Shown here one piece after another: positions 29,124 through 46,473 of a stretch of 64,000 bases of DNA. The first letter of the stretch is position 1. The number at the start of each line of letters is the position of its first letter. Both the position numbers and the translations under genes were made by a program. The notes below the pieces were generated by a model, which worked only from the letters and a program-made list of their open reading frames with translations, ran no database searches and was not told where the DNA came from. The DNA is from Bacteroidales bacterium (GTDB lineage Bacteria; Bacteroidota; Bacteroidia; Bacteroidales; UBA3663), in NCBI GenBank assembly GCA_045627785.1, contig JAZQOF010000036.1:21171-85170 (forward strand), given 5' to 3'.

Positions 29124-29165
29124 TCTTTTATTACCATTAACTAACTTAACTTTGAGTATCCGTTT

Positions 29166-29864
29166 TTAGCGGCGTCCTACGCTTGCGCTTCTTGTTCCAC
29201 CTCCAATGTTGTTGTTGACCTGAGCACGAGTGTTACCAACTCGAGTATTGCCAGTGCGATTGTTGCCGCCTTTGTTCATTGCAACATTGCTGTTGTTACG
29301 GTTGTTGCTGTGGTTTACATTATTGTTTTTGTTAGGTGCAACATTTCCATTCTTATGAGGAGCTGGAGTTACGTGAGCGTTGTTGTGTGGAACAGGCTTT
29401 GATTCTTTGCGATAGTGATCAACGCGAGCCATGTAGTGGTTCTTGTTATGTGCGTGTCCGCCATCGTAGTGACGATAACCAGCAGGTGCGCTGTAGTAGA
29501 AGTGGTTGTGTGCATAGTGATTGTGTACACCAATTACCCAAGCGCTGTTGACTACATGTACAGGAGTGAAGAAGTACTCGATGCTCTTGTAACGGATCCA
29601 CTGAGATGGAGTGAGTACATACTGGATCTCCTGATTACGCATCTCATAAGCAAAGATATTGTTGTCATATACGCTTGCGAGAGAGCGGAAATAGTCGTAG
29701 TTGATCTCGTAGATGTCTTCGATCTGATAAGTGTTGAGGTTGAGCTCCCAAGCCATCTTGTCTGTGAGGAAGCGTGCTTCACGGCTTGAGCGAGATACGC
29801 TCATTGCATTTACGTTAACTACTGCAACTGCTGCGAGAACGAGTGTGATAAAGAACTTCTTCAT
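29166..29864 (-). CDS. Secreted hypothetical protein with a His/Asn-rich low-complexity C-terminus
   Basis: Signal peptide MKKFFITLVLAAVAVVNVNA, and a C-terminal half rich in H, N and Y (HNHYAHNHFYY...NKNNNVNHSNNRNNSN). Confidence 0.6.
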   Translation of the reverse strand: MKKFFITLVLAAVAVVNVNAMSVSRSSREARFLTDKMAWELNLNTYQIEDIYEINYDYFRSLASVYDNNIFAYEMRNQEIQYVLTPSQWIRYKSIEYFFTPVHVVNSAWVIGVHNHYAHNHFYYSAPAGYRHYDGGHAHNKNHYMARVDHYRKESKPVPHNNAHVTPAPHKNGNVAPNKNNNVNHSNNRNNSNVAMNKGGNNRTGNTRVGNTRAQVNNNIGGGTRSASVGRR

Positions 29865-38526: not shown

Positions 38527-39150
38527 ATGAAACAAGAGATCCAGAAGAAAGGCGAGGTGATACTGTATCACCCGAGTGAGACCATCAAGTTGGAGGTACG
38601 ACTTGAAAACGAGACTGTGTGGCTGACGCAGCAGCAGATTGCTGAGTTATTTGGGGTAAGGCAACCTGCAATATCAAAACATCTAAATAATATCTTTAAG
38701 GAAGAAGAATTAGATCCGAGTTCAGTTCATTCCATTTTGGAATATACTGCGAGTGATGGCAAAATCTATAAAACAAATTTCTACAATCTTGATGCTATTC
38801 TTTCTGTAGGTTATAGAGTAAACAGCAAAAATGCTACTCAATTTCGTCGTTGGGCAAATAGCATCAAACTTGGGCAGGCAGAACAGCCAAAGAATATAAG
38901 CAGTTGAATGGTCTGAAGAAAGAGAATCTACGCGATAATATGACCAACGAGGAATTGGTCCTCAACATGCTGGCAGAACTTTCGACTACCAGCATTACCA
39001 AATCAAAAGATCCACAGACATTGGAAGAAAACATGCAATGTGCAGCCGATGGAGGAAATGCTGCACGCGTTGCCCGGGAGGAACTTGAAGCAAAAACCGG
39101 AAGATCGGTCGTTTCTCCTATGAGTGCTAACCGTTTCTTTGAAAGTCAAC
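38527..39150 (+). pseudogene. Gene remnants: RhuM-family N-terminal fragment fused out of frame to a DinD/RhuM-like C-terminal fragment
   Basis: 38527..38907 encodes only about the first 115 aa of a RhuM-type protein (IKLEVRLENETVWLTQQQIAELFG...SVGYRVNSKNATQFRRWA), then stops. The overlapping frame from 38904 carries a C-terminal-type segment (LRDNMTNEELVLNMLAELSTT...ARVAREELEAKTGRSVVS). The middle of the gene is missing. Confidence 0.65.
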
Positions 39151-39207
39151 AAGTAAAAAATATAAAAGGCGAAAACAAAGAGAAAAAATTTTTCCTTTTC
39201 GTCCAGC

Positions 39208-39300
39208 AAAAAAAGCCACCGTTGAGGACGATGGCTTCAGGACCTAATGTTTTCACAACGGACCGAAGTCCTTATTGTGAATTGCTGAAAAAATTGTACT
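39208..39300 (-). ncRNA. tracrRNA: tracrRNA of the type II-C system (predicted about 91 nt)
   Basis: The minus strand reads TACAATTTTTTCAGCAATTCACAA (anti-repeat), then TAAGGACTTCGGTCCGTTGTGAAAACATTAGGTCCTGAA and GCCATCG-TCCTCAA-CGGTGGC-TTTTTTT. It has 21-24 nt of perfect complementarity to the crRNA-sense repeat 5' end, a GGAC-UUCG-GUCC hairpin and an intrinsic terminator. Confidence 0.78.
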
Positions 39301-39301
39301 G

Positions 39302-39309
39302 CAAAAGTA
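39302..39309 (-). promoter_or_regulatory. -7 box (TACTTTTG on the minus strand) for the tracrRNA
   Basis: The plus strand reads CAAAAGTA, a perfect TAnnTTTG placed a few nt upstream of the first anti-repeat nucleotide. Confidence 0.5.
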
Positions 39310-39381
39310 GGAATTATTATTATTATAAGCAAATTTTACACGTTTTTTTATCGAAAAAGAAGGAATTTATGTCTAATTTTG

Positions 39382-39389
39382 TATATTTG
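39382..39389 (+). promoter_or_regulatory. -7 box TATATTTG for cas9
   Basis: Perfect TAnnTTTG, 23 nt upstream of the cas9 ATG and divergent from the tracrRNA promoter. Confidence 0.55.
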
Positions 39390-39412
39390 TCGGAGTATTT
39401 AAAGATAATAAC

Positions 39413-42400
39413 ATGAAAAAGATATTAGGTCTGGACTTAGGAACAAATAGTATTGGTTGGGCGTTGGTCAATGAAGCGGAATCATCCAAGGAACAATCGA
39501 GTATAGTAAAGCTAGGTACAAGAATAATCCATTTCGACAACTTTGTTAAGTCTGATACAGGGGCAAGTCCATACGATGCAGTGAAAGATTTCAATGCAGG
39601 AAAGGGACTATCTCCGAATGCAGGACGCACTAAGGCTCATGGAATGCGTATACGCCTTCAAAGATATAAACTGCGTAGAAAGCATCTCATTAAGGTCTTG
39701 AAAGACTATCATTTGATTGATGATAGTACTCTCTTGTGCGAAGATGGAAAGCAGACAACTCTCCAGACTTATTTCTTAAGAGCAAAAGCTGCCACTGAAG
39801 AGATTTCTCTTGAAGAATTCGCTCGTGTGCTGCTTATGATAAACAAGAAGCGTGGCTATAAGAGCAGTCGAAAAGAAACGGCAGCAGATGAGAAAGTCGA
39901 CGAACAATCATATCTTGGTGCCATCAGTTCCAGAAGCAAGATGCTAGTGGATGAAGGTCTTACTGTCGGACAATGGAAATATCGTGTACTGTCGGAAGAT
40001 AGACATAAATCTTTGAAAGATGTTGTTTTCTATCGTCAGGATTATCTTGATGAATTTGAAAAGATATGGTCTGTTCAAAAGCAATATCATAAAGAATTGT
40101 CAGCAGAACTGAAGGAGATTATCCGAGATGTAATAATCTTCTATCAGCGAAGTTTGAAATCCCAGAAGTCTGCCATTTCTTTCTGTCCATTTGAAAGCCA
40201 ACAGAAAGAGACAGAAATTGCGGGCAAGAAATGCCTGCGCACTTTCGGATGTCGCGTTGCTCCAAAGTCTTCTCCATTGTTCCAGGAATTCAGAATCTAT
40301 CAAAATCTGAATAATGTCAAGGTAACTGATTTTGTAAATCACACAGAAAGAGTCCTGAAGATTGAAGAGATCAATGCTCTTTTCAGGGAGTTGTCTTATA
40401 AAGACAAGATGTCCAAGAATGAGGCTTTGAAGATCTTGAAACTCAAACCGAAGGAATATGACCTGAACTTTGAGGAACTACAAGGCAACCGAACGCAGGC
40501 TGCCTTAGTAAAGGCGCTCCATAAAGTGATGATCAATAGCGGAAATGAAGTTGAGAAATTCGCCAAGCTGGACGCTACCAACAAACTTTCCGTTCTCGAA
40601 CCATTTATGGGAAAACTAGGAATAAAGACCGATATACTTTATTTTGACTCATCAGTTCAAGGCAAGGATTTTGAGAGACAGCCTTCATTTGCACTTTGGC
40701 ATCTGTTGTATTCCTATGTATCAGACGATTCTCGTACTGGTAACGATAAACTGTTGCAAAAACTAGAAGAGACTTTCGGTATAAAGAAAGAATATGGAGA
40801 GATCTTTGCAAATGCAACTTTCGAACCAGATTACTGCGGATTAAGTAGCAAGGCAATTAAGAAGATTATGCCTCATCTAAAGGACGGTTATCGCTATGAT
40901 GAAGCTTGCGCTCTTGCAGGATACAATCATTCGGGATCTCTTACCAAAGAAGAGATTGAAAATAGAGAGTTGGATGAATTCCTTACTGCGATACCTCGTG
41001 CATCTTTGCGCAATCCTGTAGTTGAGAAGATTCTCAATCAGATGGTCAATGTCGTCAACGCGCTAATCCTGGAATATGGAAAGCCAGATGAGGTGCGTAT
41101 TGAACTTGCCCGAGAACTGAAGAAGACAGCGAAGCAGAGACAGCAGATGACTGATGCCATCAACAAGCAGACCAAGGAACACGAGAAGATTCGCACCATA
41201 TTGATCGAGGATTTCCGTATTCCAAATCCTACAAGAAATGACATTATCCGCTATAAGCTTTATCTCGAATTAGCTAAGAATGGATATAAGACACTCTATT
41301 CGAATACATACATTCCTGCAGAGGAACTTTTCTCAAAGAATTTTGATATAGAGCATATCATACCAAAGGCACGTCTCTTCAATGATTCTTTCTCGAACAA
41401 GACAATTGAAGCGCGCGATGTAAATATAGACAAAAGAGATAAAACAGCTTTTGACTATGTAAAGGATGCGTATGGAGAGGACGGATTGAATAATTATAAG
41501 GCAAGAGTTGAAGCATTATATAAGGATCACGCGATAAGCAAATCAAAGCGCGATATGCTTCTAATGTCAGAAGCTGAAATTCCTTCAGATTTCTTGAACA
41601 GGGATCTTGCGGAATCTCAATATATAGCACGACAGGCTCGTGAGATGCTTCTCACTATAGTAAGAACTGTAACATCTACCACAGGTTCTATTACCGATCG
41701 TTTACGTGAGGATTGGGAGCTTGTCGATGTTATGAAAGATTTGTCATGGGATAAGTATGAGAAGCTCGGACTCACAGAGACCTATACAGACAGTGAAGGA
41801 CGGAAGATAGGTAAGATTAAGGACTGGACCAAGAGAAACGACCATCGCCACCACGCTATGGATGCTCTGACTATTGCATTCACGAAACCTTCATACATTC
41901 AGTATCTCAACAACCTGAATGCAAGAAGCAACAAGGAAGGTGCAATTTATGGTATCCAGCAGAAGGAACTTGAAGTTCGTGGAGGCAAACTCCGTTTCAA
42001 GTGTCCGATGGATCTTAAGCAGTTCCGCCAGGAAGCAAAGAAACAGCTATCTGCAATATTCGTTTCACTGAAGCCTAAGGGCAAAGTGGCAACAATAAGT
42101 ATTAATCCGTCGGGAAAGCAGAAGACTATTACCCCAAGAGGTCAGTTGCATAATGAGACTGTGTATGGAAAGATTCTTCAACCTACAGTCAAGAGAGGGA
42201 AGAAGGAGTTTGAAGATGTATTTACTATCCGTAAGGCAGTAGGACCAGACTTGAAGGTCGATAAAGTTATTGATGATAAGATACGTGAGATTTTGATTCA
42301 AAGACTTGCAGAATTCGGAAATGATCCAAAGAAAGCTTTCGTAAATCTTGACGAAAATCCTATCTGGCAGAATCGCGAGAAAGGAATTGCTATTAAGAAA

Positions 42401-42961
42401 GTTAAGGTCAAGGGTGTTAATGTCGCAGTACCTCTTCACGAGAAACATGACAACAAGGGCAATACATTGACAGATAGGAGAGGTAATATAATTGCGTCTG
42501 ATTATGTCAGCACAAGCAATAATCATCATGTAGCGATATTCATTGACCAAGATGGCAAGTATCAAGAGCATATAGTGTCGCTTTTCGAAGCTGTGACCAG
42601 AAAGAATCAAGGTCTTAACGTCATTGACAAAACATATAATCACGAATTAGGTTGGCAGTTTGTGTTCACGATGAAGATCAATGAATACTTTGTATTCCCT
42701 AATCCTGAAACGAATTTCTATCCTAAGGAGATTGATTTGATGGATGAAAGATATTTGAGTGAGATAAGTAAGAATCTTTATAGAGTTCAGAAATTAACTT
42801 CAAAGGATTACTTCTTTAGAAATCATCTAGAAACAACACTGGATGATAAAAAAGAACTTCGAGATGTTACTTGGAAACGAGTTACAAAAATTCAGTTGTT
42901 AGACCAAGTGGTAAAGGTTCGAATTAACCATATAGGAAAGATAGTTCAAGTCGGAGAATAA
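39413..42961 (+). CDS. cas9: Cas9 endonuclease, type II-C (1182 aa)
   Basis: RuvC-I ILGLDLGTNSIGWALV, an Arg-rich bridge helix (RIRLQRYKLRRKH), RuvC-II VRIELAREL, HNH FDIEHIIPKARLFNDSFSNKT and RuvC-III NDHRHHAMDALTIAF. All catalytic residues are present. Confidence 0.97.
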   Translation: MKKILGLDLGTNSIGWALVNEAESSKEQSSIVKLGTRIIHFDNFVKSDTGASPYDAVKDFNAGKGLSPNAGRTKAHGMRIRLQRYKLRRKHLIKVLKDYHLIDDSTLLCEDGKQTTLQTYFLRAKAATEEISLEEFARVLLMINKKRGYKSSRKETAADEKVDEQSYLGAISSRSKMLVDEGLTVGQWKYRVLSEDRHKSLKDVVFYRQDYLDEFEKIWSVQKQYHKELSAELKEIIRDVIIFYQRSLKSQKSAISFCPFESQQKETEIAGKKCLRTFGCRVAPKSSPLFQEFRIYQNLNNVKVTDFVNHTERVLKIEEINALFRELSYKDKMSKNEALKILKLKPKEYDLNFEELQGNRTQAALVKALHKVMINSGNEVEKFAKLDATNKLSVLEPFMGKLGIKTDILYFDSSVQGKDFERQPSFALWHLLYSYVSDDSRTGNDKLLQKLEETFGIKKEYGEIFANATFEPDYCGLSSKAIKKIMPHLKDGYRYDEACALAGYNHSGSLTKEEIENRELDEFLTAIPRASLRNPVVEKILNQMVNVVNALILEYGKPDEVRIELARELKKTAKQRQQMTDAINKQTKEHEKIRTILIEDFRIPNPTRNDIIRYKLYLELAKNGYKTLYSNTYIPAEELFSKNFDIEHIIPKARLFNDSFSNKTIEARDVNIDKRDKTAFDYVKDAYGEDGLNNYKARVEALYKDHAISKSKRDMLLMSEAEIPSDFLNRDLAESQYIARQAREMLLTIVRTVTSTTGSITDRLREDWELVDVMKDLSWDKYEKLGLTETYTDSEGRKIGKIKDWTKRNDHRHHAMDALTIAFTKPSYIQYLNNLNARSNKEGAIYGIQQKELEVRGGKLRFKCPMDLKQFRQEAKKQLSAIFVSLKPKGKVATISINPSGKQKTITPRGQLHNETVYGKILQPTVKRGKKEFEDVFTIRKAVGPDLKVDKVIDDKIREILIQRLAEFGNDPKKAFVNLDENPIWQNREKGIAIKKVKVKGVNVAVPLHEKHDNKGNTLTDRRGNIIASDYVSTSNNHHVAIFIDQDGKYQEHIVSLFEAVTRKNQGLNVIDKTYNHELGWQFVFTMKINEYFVFPNPETNFYPKEIDLMDERYLSEISKNLYRVQKLTSKDYFFRNHLETTLDDKKELRDVTWKRVTKIQLLDQVVKVRINHIGKIVQVGE

Positions 42962-43015: not shown

Positions 43016-43951
43016 ATGATTAAAAAAACTCTTTGTTTCAGTAATCCTGCGGTTCTTTCATTAAAGAATAAACAGATGGAGATTCGATTACCGGAATCTC
43101 AGTTGCCAAAGACTAAATACAAGATTTTTGACGACAATTATCATAGTGTACCAATTGAAGATATTGGTGTAGTTGTTCTGGAGAATCATCAGATAACAAT
43201 TACGAATGCTCTTATAGAGGCACTTTTGAAAAATAATACTGCCGTAATAACTTGCGATTCGTCTCGAATGCCAACGGGTCTTCTTCTTCCATTGTCAGGG
43301 AACACGGTTCAATCTGAACGGTTTCAAGATCAATTAAGTTCTTCCTTACCTTTACGAAAGCAATTATGGCAACAAACAGTTCAAAGTAAAATTTATAATC
43401 AAGCAGTAACACTAAAATCACACACACAAAGTGAGACTGGTAATATGTTTGCTTGGGTAGATAAGGTTAAAAGCGGAGACGCTGATAATCTTGAAGCTCG
43501 TGCCGCTGTATATTATTGGAGGAATGTTTTTCCATCACTACCATATTTTATAAGAGGCAGAGAGGAAGATCCTCCTAACAATCTTTTGAACTATGGATAT
43601 GCAATACTAAGGGGCGTAATAGCACGATCTCTTGTTGGTAGTGGCTTATTGCCGACATTGGGGATTCATCACCATAATAAATATAATGCATATTGTTTAG
43701 CCGATGATATAATGGAGCCATATAGACCGTATGTCGATGAAATAGTGATAAAAATAATTGAGAGTGGAAGGGATTATAAGACGTTATCTACAGACTTGAA
43801 GAAAGAACTTCTGAAAATACCAACTATAGATGTTAACATTGGAGGACAACGAAGTCCGTTGATGATAGCCGCAACTACAACAACTGCATCGTTGGCAAAA
43901 TGCTTTACAGGCGAAATGAGAAAGATTGTATATCCAGAAATGATAATATAG
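43016..43951 (+). CDS. cas1: CRISPR-associated endonuclease Cas1 (type II)
   Basis: NLLNYGYAILRGVIARSLVGSGLLPTLGIHHHNKYNAYCLADDIMEPYRPYVD and 311 aa. Confidence 0.95.
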   Translation: MIKKTLCFSNPAVLSLKNKQMEIRLPESQLPKTKYKIFDDNYHSVPIEDIGVVVLENHQITITNALIEALLKNNTAVITCDSSRMPTGLLLPLSGNTVQSERFQDQLSSSLPLRKQLWQQTVQSKIYNQAVTLKSHTQSETGNMFAWVDKVKSGDADNLEARAAVYYWRNVFPSLPYFIRGREEDPPNNLLNYGYAILRGVIARSLVGSGLLPTLGIHHHNKYNAYCLADDIMEPYRPYVDEIVIKIIESGRDYKTLSTDLKKELLKIPTIDVNIGGQRSPLMIAATTTTASLAKCFTGEMRKIVYPEMII

Positions 43952-43952
43952 T

Positions 43953-44285
43953 ATGGACCGTTTAAGTCAATATAGAGCAATGTGGTTGTTTGTATTTTTC
44001 GATCTTCCAACAGAAACTAAGAGTGAGCGAAAAGAATATGCAAAATTTCGCAAAAATCTTATAGAAGATGGCTTTAATATGTTTCAGTTTTCCTTTTATA
44101 TTCGTTATTGTGCAAGCAAAGAAAATGCAGATGTTCATGCAAAAAGAGTACGTACATTCTTGCCACAAAATGGATATGTAGGTATGATGACAATAACAGA
44201 TAAACAATTCTCTCAGATTGAAATCTTTTTTGAGCAAGAACAAACTCCACCAGTACATGAAGGCGTACAACTAGAATTATTCTGA
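43953..44285 (+). CDS. cas2: CRISPR-associated endoribonuclease Cas2
   Basis: MWLFVFFDLPTETKSERKEYAKFRKNLIEDGF..., 110 aa, starting 1 nt after the cas1 stop. Confidence 0.93.
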   Translation: MDRLSQYRAMWLFVFFDLPTETKSERKEYAKFRKNLIEDGFNMFQFSFYIRYCASKENADVHAKRVRTFLPQNGYVGMMTITDKQFSQIEIFFEQEQTPPVHEGVQLELF

Positions 44286-44308
44286 ATTAAGAAACCGTTA
44301 TAAAAAGT

Positions 44309-44340
44309 AAATCCATGCCGAAATAGCATGGATTTTTTTT
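44309..44340. terminator. Hairpin terminator in the cas2-array spacer region (possibly bidirectional)
   Basis: AAATCCATGC-CGAAATA-GCATGGATTT followed by a T run on the plus strand. A T-rich tract also follows it on the minus strand. Confidence 0.7.
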
Positions 44341-44393
44341 CTTTTCTAATTTGCTTTGCAATAAGTTGAATGCCAGTAGAATGTACACATTCA

Positions 44394-45672
44394 GTTGTTA
44401 TTGCAAGTGCAAAGATATAATTTTTTCAGCAATTCACAACAACCGCTTTATAAACCTATCCTTGATAAGGTTGTTATTGCAAGTGCAAAGATATAATTTT
44501 TTCAGCAATTCACAACTCTTTCTCGTTCTTGCTGTGCTCTTGCTTGGTTGTTATTGCAAGTGCAAAGATATAATTTTTTCAGCAATTCACAACAGGTGCA
44601 TCGCGTTATATATCTAAGTATAGTTGTTATTGCAAGTGCAAAGATATAATTTTTTCAGCAATTCACAACAATCAGCTCTCCTTTCCGAAATCGCTCTCAG
44701 TTGTTATTGCAAGTGCAAAGATATAATTTTTTCAGCAATTCACAACTATTTGATTAGAGGGAAGATAAGGGGCGGAGTTGTTATTGCAAGTGCAAAGATA
44801 TAATTTTTTCAGCAATTCACAACATGTTCGGTATTTTATATGAAAATGGTAAAGTTGTTATTGCAAGTGCAAAGATATAATTTTTTCAGCAATTCACAAC
44901 TATTGTCGAGCACTTTTGCAAAATGGGGCAGTTGTTATTGCAAGTGCAAAGATATAATTTTTTCAGCAATTCACAACGACCACGAAATATAGGTCTACTA
45001 AATTGTCGTTGTTATTGCAAGTGCAAAGATATAATTTTTTCAGCAATTCACAACTTGACTGACTACGATAACGGCATTACAGAAGTTGTTATTGCAAGTG
45101 CAAAGATATAATTTTTTCAGCAATTCACAACGCATAAGAATTTGTATAAATGGTTAAACAGTTGTTATTGCAAGTGCAAAGATATAATTTTTTCAGCAAT
45201 TCACAACTCGGCGTTCTTTAGTTGTTCAGTAACGTCGGTTGTTATTGCAAGTGCAAAGATACAATTTTTTTCAGCAATTCACAACCATCTTACGGGGTTT
45301 ATTCCTACTTCGTGGTTGTTATTGCAAGTGCAAAGATACAATTTTTTTCAGCAATTCACAACTAATCGTCTGCCTTGCCAGTCAGTAACACAGTTGTTAT
45401 TGCAAGTGCAAAGATACAATTTTTTTCAGCAATTCACAACTTCTTCTATGCGCAACTTGAAGGGTGTGCGGTTGTTATTGCAAGTGCAAAGATACAATTT
45501 TTTCAGCAATTCACAACAACGAGATGATGAGCCGCATCGTATTCAACGTTGTTATTGCAAGTGCAAAGATACAATTTTTTTCAGCAATTCACAACTTGTC
45601 GAGGTTCTCGATCTTGAAAAGCACAGTTGTTATTGCAAGTGCAAAGATACAATTTTTTCAGCAATTCACAAC
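44394..45672 (-). CRISPR. CRISPR array: 17 repeats (47-48 nt), 16 spacers (29-30 nt), functional sense inferred to be the minus strand
   Basis: Repeat, plus strand: GTTGTTATTGCAAGTGCAAAGATATAATTTTTTCAGCAATTCACAAC. Repeat starts: 44394, 44470, 44547, 44623, 44700, 44777, 44854, 44931, 45008, 45085, 45161, 45238, 45315, 45393, 45471, 45548, 45626. Repeats 12-17 carry a T-to-C change (GATACAA), and repeats 12, 13, 14 and 16 also carry one extra T. Confidence 0.98.
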
Positions 45673-45717: not shown

Positions 45718-45725
45718 TATCTTTG
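45718..45725 (+). promoter_or_regulatory. -7 box TATCTTTG for the HTH gene pair
   Basis: Perfect TAnnTTTG, 35 nt upstream of ATG 45761 and 46 nt after the last full repeat. Confidence 0.55.
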
Positions 45726-45760
45726 CATCACGAAAAATTTTAATTCCAAATGAAACAATT

Positions 45761-46060
45761 ATGCAGATTAGATTGAAAGAAATTCTTGACAAGCAAGGTT
45801 TGACACAAGCTCAGTTGGCAGAAAAGATCGGAGTCACACCATCATCCATTTCCTGTGCCTTGTCTCGTGGAAACATTTCATTGTCGTTGCTTGACAGTTA
45901 TGCTCAGGCGCTCAACATTCCTACTTGGGAATTGTTGGTGTCTGGTGGTGAATTTGAAGAACCGGAACAGACATCTGGTGTTGCGCGTAACACCATGTTA
46001 GTCACATGTCCTAAATGTAATCAAAAACTTGAATTGGCACTTTCTGTAAAAACTCTTTGA
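45761..46060 (+). CDS. Small XRE-like HTH protein with a C-terminal CxxC motif (99 aa)
   Basis: LTQAQLAEKIGVTPSSISCALSRG HTH and a C-terminal VTCPKCNQKLEL. The ORF-track N-terminal extension (from 45464) is translation of CRISPR repeats and is rejected. Confidence 0.75.
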   Translation: MQIRLKEILDKQGLTQAQLAEKIGVTPSSISCALSRGNISLSLLDSYAQALNIPTWELLVSGGEFEEPEQTSGVARNTMLVTCPKCNQKLELALSVKTL

Positions 46061-46061
46061 T

Positions 46062-46364
46062 ATGACAGAATTAATTATTAAAGAACAGCTCAAAGCTCAC
46101 GGATTGACATTGACTCGTTTGGCTCAGGAAATGAATATATCCCAAGGATCATTATCTGTGATGATTCGCAGTAATTTGACATTACCTACTATCGAACGCA
46201 TAGCTCAGGTAATTGGCGTAGAACCTTATGAGCTTTTTATTACTAAAGAAAATCTCATGGCAGAACGCCAACGTCGATATAGGGAAGCAGTTCCTCGCGC
46301 TACTGTGTTCTGCCCTTGTTGTGGAAAGGCTATTTGCGTAAAGCTCGACATCGACAACCAATGA
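46062..46364 (+). CDS. Paralogous small XRE-like HTH protein with a C-terminal CPCC motif (100 aa)
   Basis: LTLTRLAQEMNISQGSLSVMIRSN HTH and a C-terminal VFCPCCGKAICV. It is collinear with the upstream gene and starts 1 nt after its stop. Confidence 0.75.
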   Translation: MTELIIKEQLKAHGLTLTRLAQEMNISQGSLSVMIRSNLTLPTIERIAQVIGVEPYELFITKENLMAERQRRYREAVPRATVFCPCCGKAICVKLDIDNQ

Positions 46365-46393
46365 TATTTCAGTAGTATTTTATAAGACTTCCT

Positions 46394-46427
46394 AAGCGGT
46401 ACAGGTTTCGGACTTGTACCGCTTTTT
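46394..46427 (+). terminator. Rho-independent terminator of the HTH pair
   Basis: 10-bp stem AAGCGGTACA / TGTACCGCTT whose 3' arm runs into a T5 run. Confidence 0.8.
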
Positions 46428-46438
46428 GTTTATTATTA

Positions 46439-46473
46439 GTTGTTGTTGCAAGTGCAAAGATACAATTTACAAC
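46439..46473 (-). repeat. Degenerate orphan CRISPR repeat (35 nt)
   Basis: GTTGTTGTTGCAAGTGCAAAGATACAATTT--ACAAC. The first 30 nt match the repeat at 29 of 30 positions (C-allele), an internal 12-13 nt is deleted, and the terminal ACAAC is retained. Confidence 0.85.

Follow-up and report, generated by a model that had tools for sequence, protein, structure and literature searches.

Promoters within the repeats of a type II-C CRISPR array were reportedly described in Neisseria meningitidis by Zhang et al. in 2013 (Mol Cell 50:488). Repeat-embedded promoters of CRISPR RNAs (crRNAs) are established in the II-C arrays of N. meningitidis and Campylobacter jejuni (PMC12477760; Dugar et al., 2013, PMC3656092), where the 36-nt repeat has a sigma-70 extended −10 box at its 3′ end and, in Neisseria, transcription starts at the sixth nucleotide of the spacer (PMC12477760). 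Within the Bacteroidota, a TTG about 33–35 bp upstream of the spacers has been reported for Flavobacterium with support from RNA-seq coverage (PMC8092290; PMC10309648): in the F. columnare repeat of 36 nt it was located by Hoikkala et al. (2021, PMC8092290) 33 bp upstream of each spacer, with eight supporting within-array reads, and the same putative TTG repeat promoter was given for F. psychrophilum (PMC10309648). Here we describe a II-C array with 17 repeats of 47 or 48 nt from a 64,000-nt stretch of the genome of a gut or rumen Bacteroidales bacterium (contig JAZQOF010000036.1, positions 21,171–85,170; hereafter the window). Each of these repeats probably constitutes a self-contained promoter of the sigma-ABfr type with its own transcription start for each spacer, which is the best-supported explanation of its sequence.

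Unusually long repeats, of up to 48 nt, were noted and left unexplained for a Bacteroidetes subcluster of Cas9 proteins by Chylinski et al. (2013, PMC3737331). The locus in the window is of the same kind as this subcluster, which includes Riemerella anatipestifer and Bacteroides fragilis 638R: it shares the GTTGTGA(A/T)TTGC handle, the repeat length of 46–48 nt and a trans-activating crRNA (tracrRNA) gene upstream of and divergent from cas9. None of the papers on the subcluster, whether on R. anatipestifer, on B. fragilis or by Chylinski et al., explains the repeat length. No anti-repeat was found in B. fragilis by Chylinski et al. (PMC3737331), nor for that repeat type by Ye and Zhang (2016, PMC4911918), and a genomics study of R. 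anatipestifer found no promoters in the 47-nt repeats with a sigma-70-trained predictor (PMC5006608).

Like the Neisseria and Campylobacter loci, that of the window comprises cas9, cas1 and cas2, its array is read towards the leader, the variable cas-proximal end, and the cas genes, and each repeat (17 of 17) has a promoter element in crRNA sense. It differs in the element itself, which is a Bacteroidota −33/−7 pair spread across a 47-nt repeat, and in the start, which is predicted to lie inside the repeat and to leave a repeat-derived 5′ tag. The initial annotation of this DNA had likened the array to that of N. meningitidis; the analogy of mechanism stands, while the type of element and the start site do not carry over. 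With Flavobacterium the locus shares the phylum and a Bacteroidota-type promoter element in II-C repeats that would drive transcription towards the variable end, but the Flavobacterium papers give the TTG only and no −7 TAnnTTTG in the repeat, whereas here the full −33/−7 pair fits the profile of the genome. The logic appears to be the same as in Neisseria, with a promoter grammar and a predicted start that are new and that the Flavobacterium work partly anticipated. Full-text literature searches yielded no paper that gives a full −33/−7 pair in such repeats or maps their primary 5′ ends.

Promoter-like motif in the repeats

TAnnTTTG is the −7 motif of the −33/−7 consensus of sigma-ABfr, the primary sigma factor of Bacteroidota, in which a TTG or TTTG stands about 19–20 nt upstream (PMC7366714). 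Read in crRNA sense, on the minus strand, the repeat of the window is G-TTG-TGAATTGCTGAAAAAATT(A/G)-TATCTTTG-CACTTGCAATAACAAC. A scan of both strands between 43900 and 46700 revealed that on the minus strand all 17 repeats have a perfect TAnnTTTG, as does an orphan partial repeat beyond the cas-distal end (46462). There is no other minus-strand copy in this interval and none between 45673 and 46461; the sole plus-strand copy is the promoter box of a helix-turn-helix (HTH) gene pair at 45718. The box occupies repeat positions 24–31 (25–32 in the 48-nt copies) and is followed by 16 nt of repeat. Sigma-70-type sites are not enriched (25 versus 22.8 expected), and no sigma-70 extended −10 box stands at the 3′ end of the repeat. 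Because the box is located just beyond the duplex with the tracrRNA, pairing does not explain its conservation.

The array contains two repeat alleles. The 11 cas-proximal repeats carry the 47-nt allele ...GATATAATTTTTT... (also given as ...AAAGATATAATTTTTT...), and the six cas-distal repeats the allele ...GATACAATTTTTT(T)... (also given as ...AAAGATACAATTTTTT(T)...), four of these six being 48 nt long. The initial annotation had stated that the box is intact in both alleles and in the orphan, as the scan confirmed. It had also placed a TTG 19 nt upstream of the box, which is true of the 47-nt copies; in the four 48-nt copies the distance is 20 nt. A full −33/−7 pair, claimed for the repeats at large, is present in all 17 array repeats, and the orphan has the box without the −33 TTG. 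The observation that the same octamer precedes other genes of the window is largely borne out: TATCTTTG is found 39–52 nt before the genes for glycyl-tRNA synthetase, an M20 peptidase (PepT-like) and the first HTH protein.

Agreement with the promoters of the genome

TAnnTTTG occurs 3128 times in the genome, at a frequency of 5.0e-4 per strand position. Sense copies form a peak 20–70 nt upstream of 2543 long open reading frames (ORFs), with 167 in the 30–39 nt bin against a background of about 15–20, and antisense copies show no upstream peak over the same ORFs; the genome demonstrably uses TAnnTTTG promoters. The profile of 560 aligned gene-upstream sites is TA-T(68%)-C(47%)-TTTG-C(73%)-A/G-C. 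An A/T tract occupies −9 to −4, the spacing of the TTG has its modes at 20 nt (145 sites) and 19 nt (71 sites), and the bases 5–10 nt after the box are A-rich.

The repeat, which reads AAAAAATTA-TATCTTTG-CAC, has the preferred base at every soft position and fits the extended consensus of the genome (TATCTTTGCAC, an upstream A-tract and a TTG at the two modal spacings). In the four 48-nt copies (45161–45672) the A-tract is longer by one A, which moves the −33/−7 spacing from 19 nt to the genome-modal 20 nt. In a context score that counts only the positions outside the six fixed bases of the box, the 47-nt copies reach the 65th percentile of the 560 gene-upstream sites and the 48-nt copies the 82nd; against the other TAnnTTTG sites of the genome the repeats stand at the 93rd–97th percentile. 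The orphan, without handle and A-tract, ranks at the 18th percentile of the gene-upstream sites. As judged by sequence, the promoter match of the repeat exceeds chance, and the profile, the spacing modes and the percentiles support the proposal of the initial annotation that the repeat carries a host-type −33/−7 promoter match.

tracrRNA and orientation of the array

The plus strand at 39275–39295 is identical to positions 2–22 of the minus-strand reading of the repeat, so that minus-strand RNA from this site carries a perfect anti-repeat. Over the whole site (39275–39298, repeat positions 2–24), complementarity is perfect for 21 nt with the cas-proximal allele and for 23 nt with the cas-distal, older allele. 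A fusion of handle, GAAA and tracrRNA folds into a 24-bp duplex and two hairpins at −56.1 kcal/mol (z = −10.45). The crRNA sense is the minus strand, because it is fixed by the anti-repeat of the tracrRNA together with the promoter and terminator of the tracrRNA gene, and it points towards cas2; the orientation assumed in the initial annotation is thereby borne out. A role of the orphan at 46439 as anti-repeat to a crRNA from the plus strand was considered and rejected: its orientation is that of the array, it matches the half of the repeat without the handle and it has no tracrRNA-like tail, and all three features of a tracrRNA are present at 39275–39298. The cas operon consists of cas9, cas1 and cas2 only, without csn2 or cas4, and this composition, like the tracrRNA with an anti-repeat complementary to the repeat, is that of type II-C.

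R. anatipestifer, whose system has 47-nt repeats, inserts new spacers adjoining cas2 (PMC6008519). A contig from another sample that encodes an identical Cas2 has the same leader and different first spacers; the first repeat is where nearly all contigs with an identical Cas2 end, and only one yielded extra spacers. In one such contig (ERZ27276727; L128, 4640–4754) three normal repeats are followed by repeat sequence in opposite orientation with a degenerate box (AAATCTTTG), which represents either the inversion of a segment of the array or a chimera of the assembly. In eight gut metatranscriptomes, 47-nt arrays of the B. fragilis 638R type were transcribed for the most part face to face with the cas genes; where reads were quantified, in two individuals, 71–98% had that direction (PMC4911918).

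In crRNA sense the array has its leader downstream, so no promoter there can give rise to RNA of that sense; the only promoters able to make crRNAs are trailer-side or internal ones. On the trailer side no minus-strand box precedes the orphan, which is itself weak and stands behind a convergent, terminated gene pair. Internal promoters would be the simplest way to express the spacers, the newest above all.

Predicted transcription of the array

The conserved 5′ handle GTTGTG of each repeat would supply the −33 TTG, and the mid-repeat TATCTTTG, with the A-tract upstream and C-A-C downstream, would act as the −7 element. RNA polymerase is predicted to start about 4–8 nt after the box, at repeat positions ~35–40, leaving the last 9–13 nt of the repeat as a 5′ tag; this placement follows from the end of the box at position 31, a motif centred near −7 and the same geometry at the tracrRNA promoter. 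The transcripts would run on the minus strand towards cas2, through the 30-nt spacer into the handle of the next repeat, which would pair with the tracrRNA over 23–24 bp, leading to Cas9 loading and probably to cutting by RNase III. They would end before cas2 at the bidirectional terminator (44335–44309), which would also stop read-through of the cas operon into the array. Since the leader at which new spacers would enter is cas2-proximal and lies downstream in crRNA sense, it is internal promoters that would let the newest spacers be expressed. Function has been established experimentally in Neisseria and Campylobacter, whereas here the firing of the promoters, the exact start site and the processing steps are predicted from the sequence features, the orientation of the array, its fit to the promoters of the genome and the conservation of the motif in Bacteroidales.

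Occurrence in related arrays

Related loci were gathered by Cas9 homology, not by repeat sequence, from 17 named loci (one genome per species), 60 close relatives and 400 genomes drawn evenly across the phylum. The arrays were oriented by the conserved GTTGTGA(A/T)TTGC handle, with which the anti-repeat just upstream of cas9, where detectable, agreed. A perfect TAnnTTTG is present in crRNA sense in 14 of 35 distinct repeats of 45–49 nt and in antisense in none, against 1.8 expected from shuffles. In 13 of the 14 the box is at positions 23–25 with a TTG 18–20 nt upstream.

Of 15 Bacteroidales arrays, which come from genomes of the genus or order to which the window belongs and from metagenome-assembled genomes (MAGs) named Bacteroidales, Bacteroidaceae or Prevotella, 12 have the box, in the variants TATCTTTG, TATATTTG, TACTTTTG, TACATTTG, TATTTTTG and TAACTTTG. 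The arrays drawn evenly from other orders of Bacteroidia and from other classes have no perfect box (0 of 17), and non-Bacteroidales arrays contain near-matches at the homologous place (GTTCTTTG, GATCTTTG, TATTTTTA, TATTTTAG). A phylum-wide invariant box is thus rejected; in this sample the perfect box appears characteristic of Bacteroidales, neither phylum-wide nor universal in the repeat family. The initial annotation had spoken of a phylum-specific promoter grammar, which is apt for the type of promoter, the perfect box in the repeat being largely confined to Bacteroidales in the sample.

Conservation was calculated by column over 17 Bacteroidales-type repeats taken irrespective of the box, in order to avoid circularity. 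Mean values are 0.94 for the handle, 0.72 for the linker, 0.87 for the six specified positions of the box, 0.65 for its two "n" positions, 0.57 for the tail and 0.94 for the last five bases. The six positions that the sigma factor would read form a conservation island, while the two free positions and the downstream tail drift, which is the pattern of TAnnTTTG.

Individual arrays depart from this form. A Prevotella-genus array from the same genus as the window (L093, 4417–6507; genome G005) has no crRNA-sense TAnnTTTG (GTTGTGATTTGCTTTCAAATTCCCAAAGCATACCGATAGGAACAAC) and would be a useful natural control for the transcription of such arrays. Outside Bacteroidota, the 48-nt repeat that goes with a Cas9 relative in a Chitinispirillia MAG (L044, 15801–15977; WQTH01000013.1) reads TTGTGA-N18-TATATT in crRNA sense, in the place of the TTG-N19-TAnnTTTG of Bacteroidales repeats; the promoter grammar may have switched with the host in this single case from a binned genome. 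A further locus (L048, 4138–5885; genome G418), whose Cas9 is 55% identical to that of the window, has 36-nt repeats (GTTGTGATTTGCTTTCAGTAAACGATCTTTGACATG), and the 47-nt repeat looks like this form with about 11 nt of extra 3′ tail after the position of the box.

A tentative suggestion, which we regard as possible and by no means probable, is that the 46–48-nt repeats of the Bacteroidales Cas9 lineage are long because each is the complete head of a transcription unit. The handle would double as the −33 element, the mid-repeat box would be the −7 element, and the extra ~11-nt tail, absent in the 36-nt repeats of L048, would contain the transcription start along with the bases transcribed first. 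The output of the promoter would then not depend on which spacer follows, and all 30 nt of the spacer would be transcribed behind a constant 5′ tag derived from the repeat.

Partial repeats at the trailer ends

Each related array was probed for partial repeats over one period past its first and its last full repeat. At 13 of the 27 trailer ends in view (L046, L050, L057, L073, L076, L081, L085, L091, L094, L096, L097, L100 and L103) there is a partial repeat consisting of the crRNA-sense 3′ part only, several being identical over 24/24 or 25/25 nt with a random handle half. Leader ends have none (0 of 33), and handle-only partial repeats were not seen. The breakpoints range from position 10 to position 31, and the perfect box is kept in three of the five box-bearing arrays with such a copy (L094, L097 and L100). 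The orphan of the window is of the same 3′-part-only kind.

A similar arrangement is found in Riemerella phage vB_RanS_CRP19 (OR089151.1, ~29150–29550; L127, 195–470), which contains an intergenic II-C mini-array with, in order, a box-half partial repeat, a spacer, three full 48-nt repeats (GTTGTGAATTGCTTTCAAAAATTTACTATCTTTGTGATAGTTCGCAAC) with two identical spacers and a terminator. Each repeat of this mini-array has a perfect TATCTTTG, and the whole resembles a self-expressing cassette for a guide or decoy carried by the phage.

The 3′ part that is retained adjoins the spacer, and no crRNA needs it for pairing with the tracrRNA; such retention fits, as indirect evidence, a role in expressing the adjacent spacer. 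The 3′-part-only copies at the trailer ends, the orphan of the window and the head of the phage mini-array could be minimal promoters kept by selection.

Alternative explanations

Several points weigh against the reading that every repeat is a promoter. Seventeen promoters at intervals of 77 bp might interfere with one another, some of the reads from B. fragilis arrays are antisense (PMC4911918), and no RNA evidence at single-nucleotide resolution was found in the literature for any 47-nt-repeat array. The presence of the TTG alone carries little weight, as the −33 TTG is supplied by the GTTGT start common to type II repeats. Perfect boxes are lacking in the 17 evenly drawn arrays from beyond Bacteroidales and in three Bacteroidales arrays, including L093; the same-order L055 is also without the box altogether. 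The box is thus not indispensable to the repeat family, and part of its conservation may reflect shared ancestry. Among the partial trailer copies of box-bearing arrays, two of five (L096 and L103) have lost the perfect box, and gene conversion or recent truncation could give the same pattern of partial repeats.

The mid-repeat island could instead be conserved for a role other than transcription, as an anchor for the Cas1–Cas2 integrase or an element contacted by Cas9, with the array served by one external promoter on the trailer side. Related non-Bacteroidales arrays keep a TCTTTG core without the TA, which suggests an ancestral element that was not a consensus promoter; a perfect box is missing from some working arrays, one of them of the same genus (L093, L055), and the partial trailer repeats vary in breakpoint, with the box lost in two of five. 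This explanation is nevertheless unlikely, given that conservation follows TA-nn-TTTG with both n positions free, that the flanks match the extended promoter consensus of the genome and its two modal −33 spacings, and that the box is found in crRNA sense only (14 versus 0) and outside the tracrRNA duplex. Moreover, the external promoter that it calls for has no minus-strand box between the array and the orphan, where the HTH cassette and its terminator intervene. A variant in which the boxes bind RNA polymerase and add little, most crRNA arising by read-through from a stronger upstream start (the orphan at 46462 or an unrecognised promoter), would make the repeat promoters weak, occluded or conditional. 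Tandem promoters at a 77-bp spacing can indeed occlude one another, and the orphan, 790 nt upstream in crRNA sense, still has a perfect box. Read-through is conceivable, since the T-tract of the hairpin below the orphan is poor on the minus strand. We consider this variant quite improbable: the orphan has neither −33 element nor A-tract and ranks at the 18th percentile against the 65th–82nd for the array repeats, its transcript would run antisense through two expressed HTH genes, and the newest spacers are about 2 kb away from it. Finally, TAnnTTTG is short and frequent in the genome, and the repeat is A/T-rich, which could invite chance resemblance. Yet a box is expected in only about 2% of random 47-mers on a given strand, and in about 0.1% with a TTG at 17–21 nt; the strand bias across the 35 independent repeats (14 sense, 0 antisense, 1.8 expected) and a context score above the median of real promoters make coincidence extremely unlikely. 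A self-contained sigma-ABfr promoter in each repeat probably accounts for these observations.

Features of the locus

The coordinates of the array, its elements and the neighbouring features are collected in Table 1. The genome of the window comprises 3.15 Mb in 50 contigs with a G+C content of 42.7%, and the nearest Cas9 among named genomes is that of a Prevotella sp. MAG, with 75% identity. The array directly follows cas2 and the leader.

Table 1. Features of the CRISPR locus and of its candidate promoters (window coordinates).
Feature	Position	Strand	Remarks
−7 box TATCTTTG, example in the cas2-proximal repeat	44410–44417	−	Scan of both strands
First base of the box, repeats 1–9	44417, 44493, 44570, 44646, 44723, 44800, 44877, 44954, 45031	−	
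First base of the box, repeats 10–17	45108, 45184, 45261, 45338, 45416, 45494, 45571, 45649	−	
−33 TTG, example (repeat positions 2–4)	44437–44439	−	Same bases are part of the tracrRNA-pairing handle
Transcription start zone, first repeat (positions ~35–40)	44401–44406	−	Predicted
tracrRNA gene	39205–39298	−	Anti-repeat 39298–39275, nexus-like hairpin, intrinsic terminator 39238–39212
tracrRNA promoter TTG-N20-TACTTTTG	39302–39335	−	Box 39309–39302, ends 3–4 nt ahead of the anti-repeat; read directly from sequence
cas9	39413–42961	+	1182 aa; intact RuvC-I motif MKKILGLDLGTNSIGWA, HNH and RuvC_III domains
cas1	43016–43951	+	Cas1 domain
cas2	43953–44285	+	Cas2 domain
Leader, 108 nt	44286–44393	unassigned	cas2-proximal, variable array end
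Bidirectional terminator hairpin inside the leader	44309–44335	both	Scores as a terminator on each strand
Type II-C CRISPR array	44394–45672	crRNA sense −	17 repeats of 47/48 nt, 16 spacers of ~30 nt
Two-gene HTH (Cro/C1-type) cassette	45718–46424	+	Between array and orphan; own box TATCTTTG at 45718, terminator 46394–46424
Orphan partial repeat	46439–46468	−	crRNA-sense 3′ part only (box and tail), 28/30 identical; without handle and −33 TTG

Upstream of cas9, a 126-aa ORF (38527–38907) together with the frames that follow appears to be what is left of a broken gene, which adjoins the tracrRNA terminator (38527–39416). The ORF at 38904–39416 (170 aa) was rejected as the N terminus of a frameshifted cas9, which starts at 39413 with an intact RuvC-I motif, and also as a real gene; it is spurious and overlaps the tracrRNA gene on the other strand.

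No Rfam family was matched anywhere in the window. A search for protospacers with the whole array against cultured phage records returned chance-level matches only (Mycobacterium phages). A metagenome scan with the full repeat gave no match, and one with the 19-nt handle gave 22 single-copy matches and no arrays. In six human-gut metagenome contigs (L108, L110, L111, L113, L115 and L120) a solitary handle GTTGTGAATTGCTGAAAAA is followed by a GC hairpin (gacggggacttcggcc...), with no array; these contigs may carry a solitary-repeat or decoy-type RNA gene.

Significance

If the promoters fire, the supply of crRNA in many gut, oral and rumen Bacteroidales would be independent of a leader promoter and would scale with the length of the array. 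In II-C systems Cas9 senses crRNA abundance to tune the acquisition of spacers (PMC12477760), and repeat-borne promoters would bear on this control. They would also help to explain the long repeats noted for this Cas9 cluster in 2013 and would correct the published statement that the repeats of R. anatipestifer are promoterless. CRISPR orientation predictors and sigma-70-trained promoter tools mis-handle such arrays. One repeat by itself could be used in Bacteroides and Prevotella as a compact native cassette, combining promoter and handle, from which to express guides, and mini-arrays on phages and plasmids would be self-expressing.

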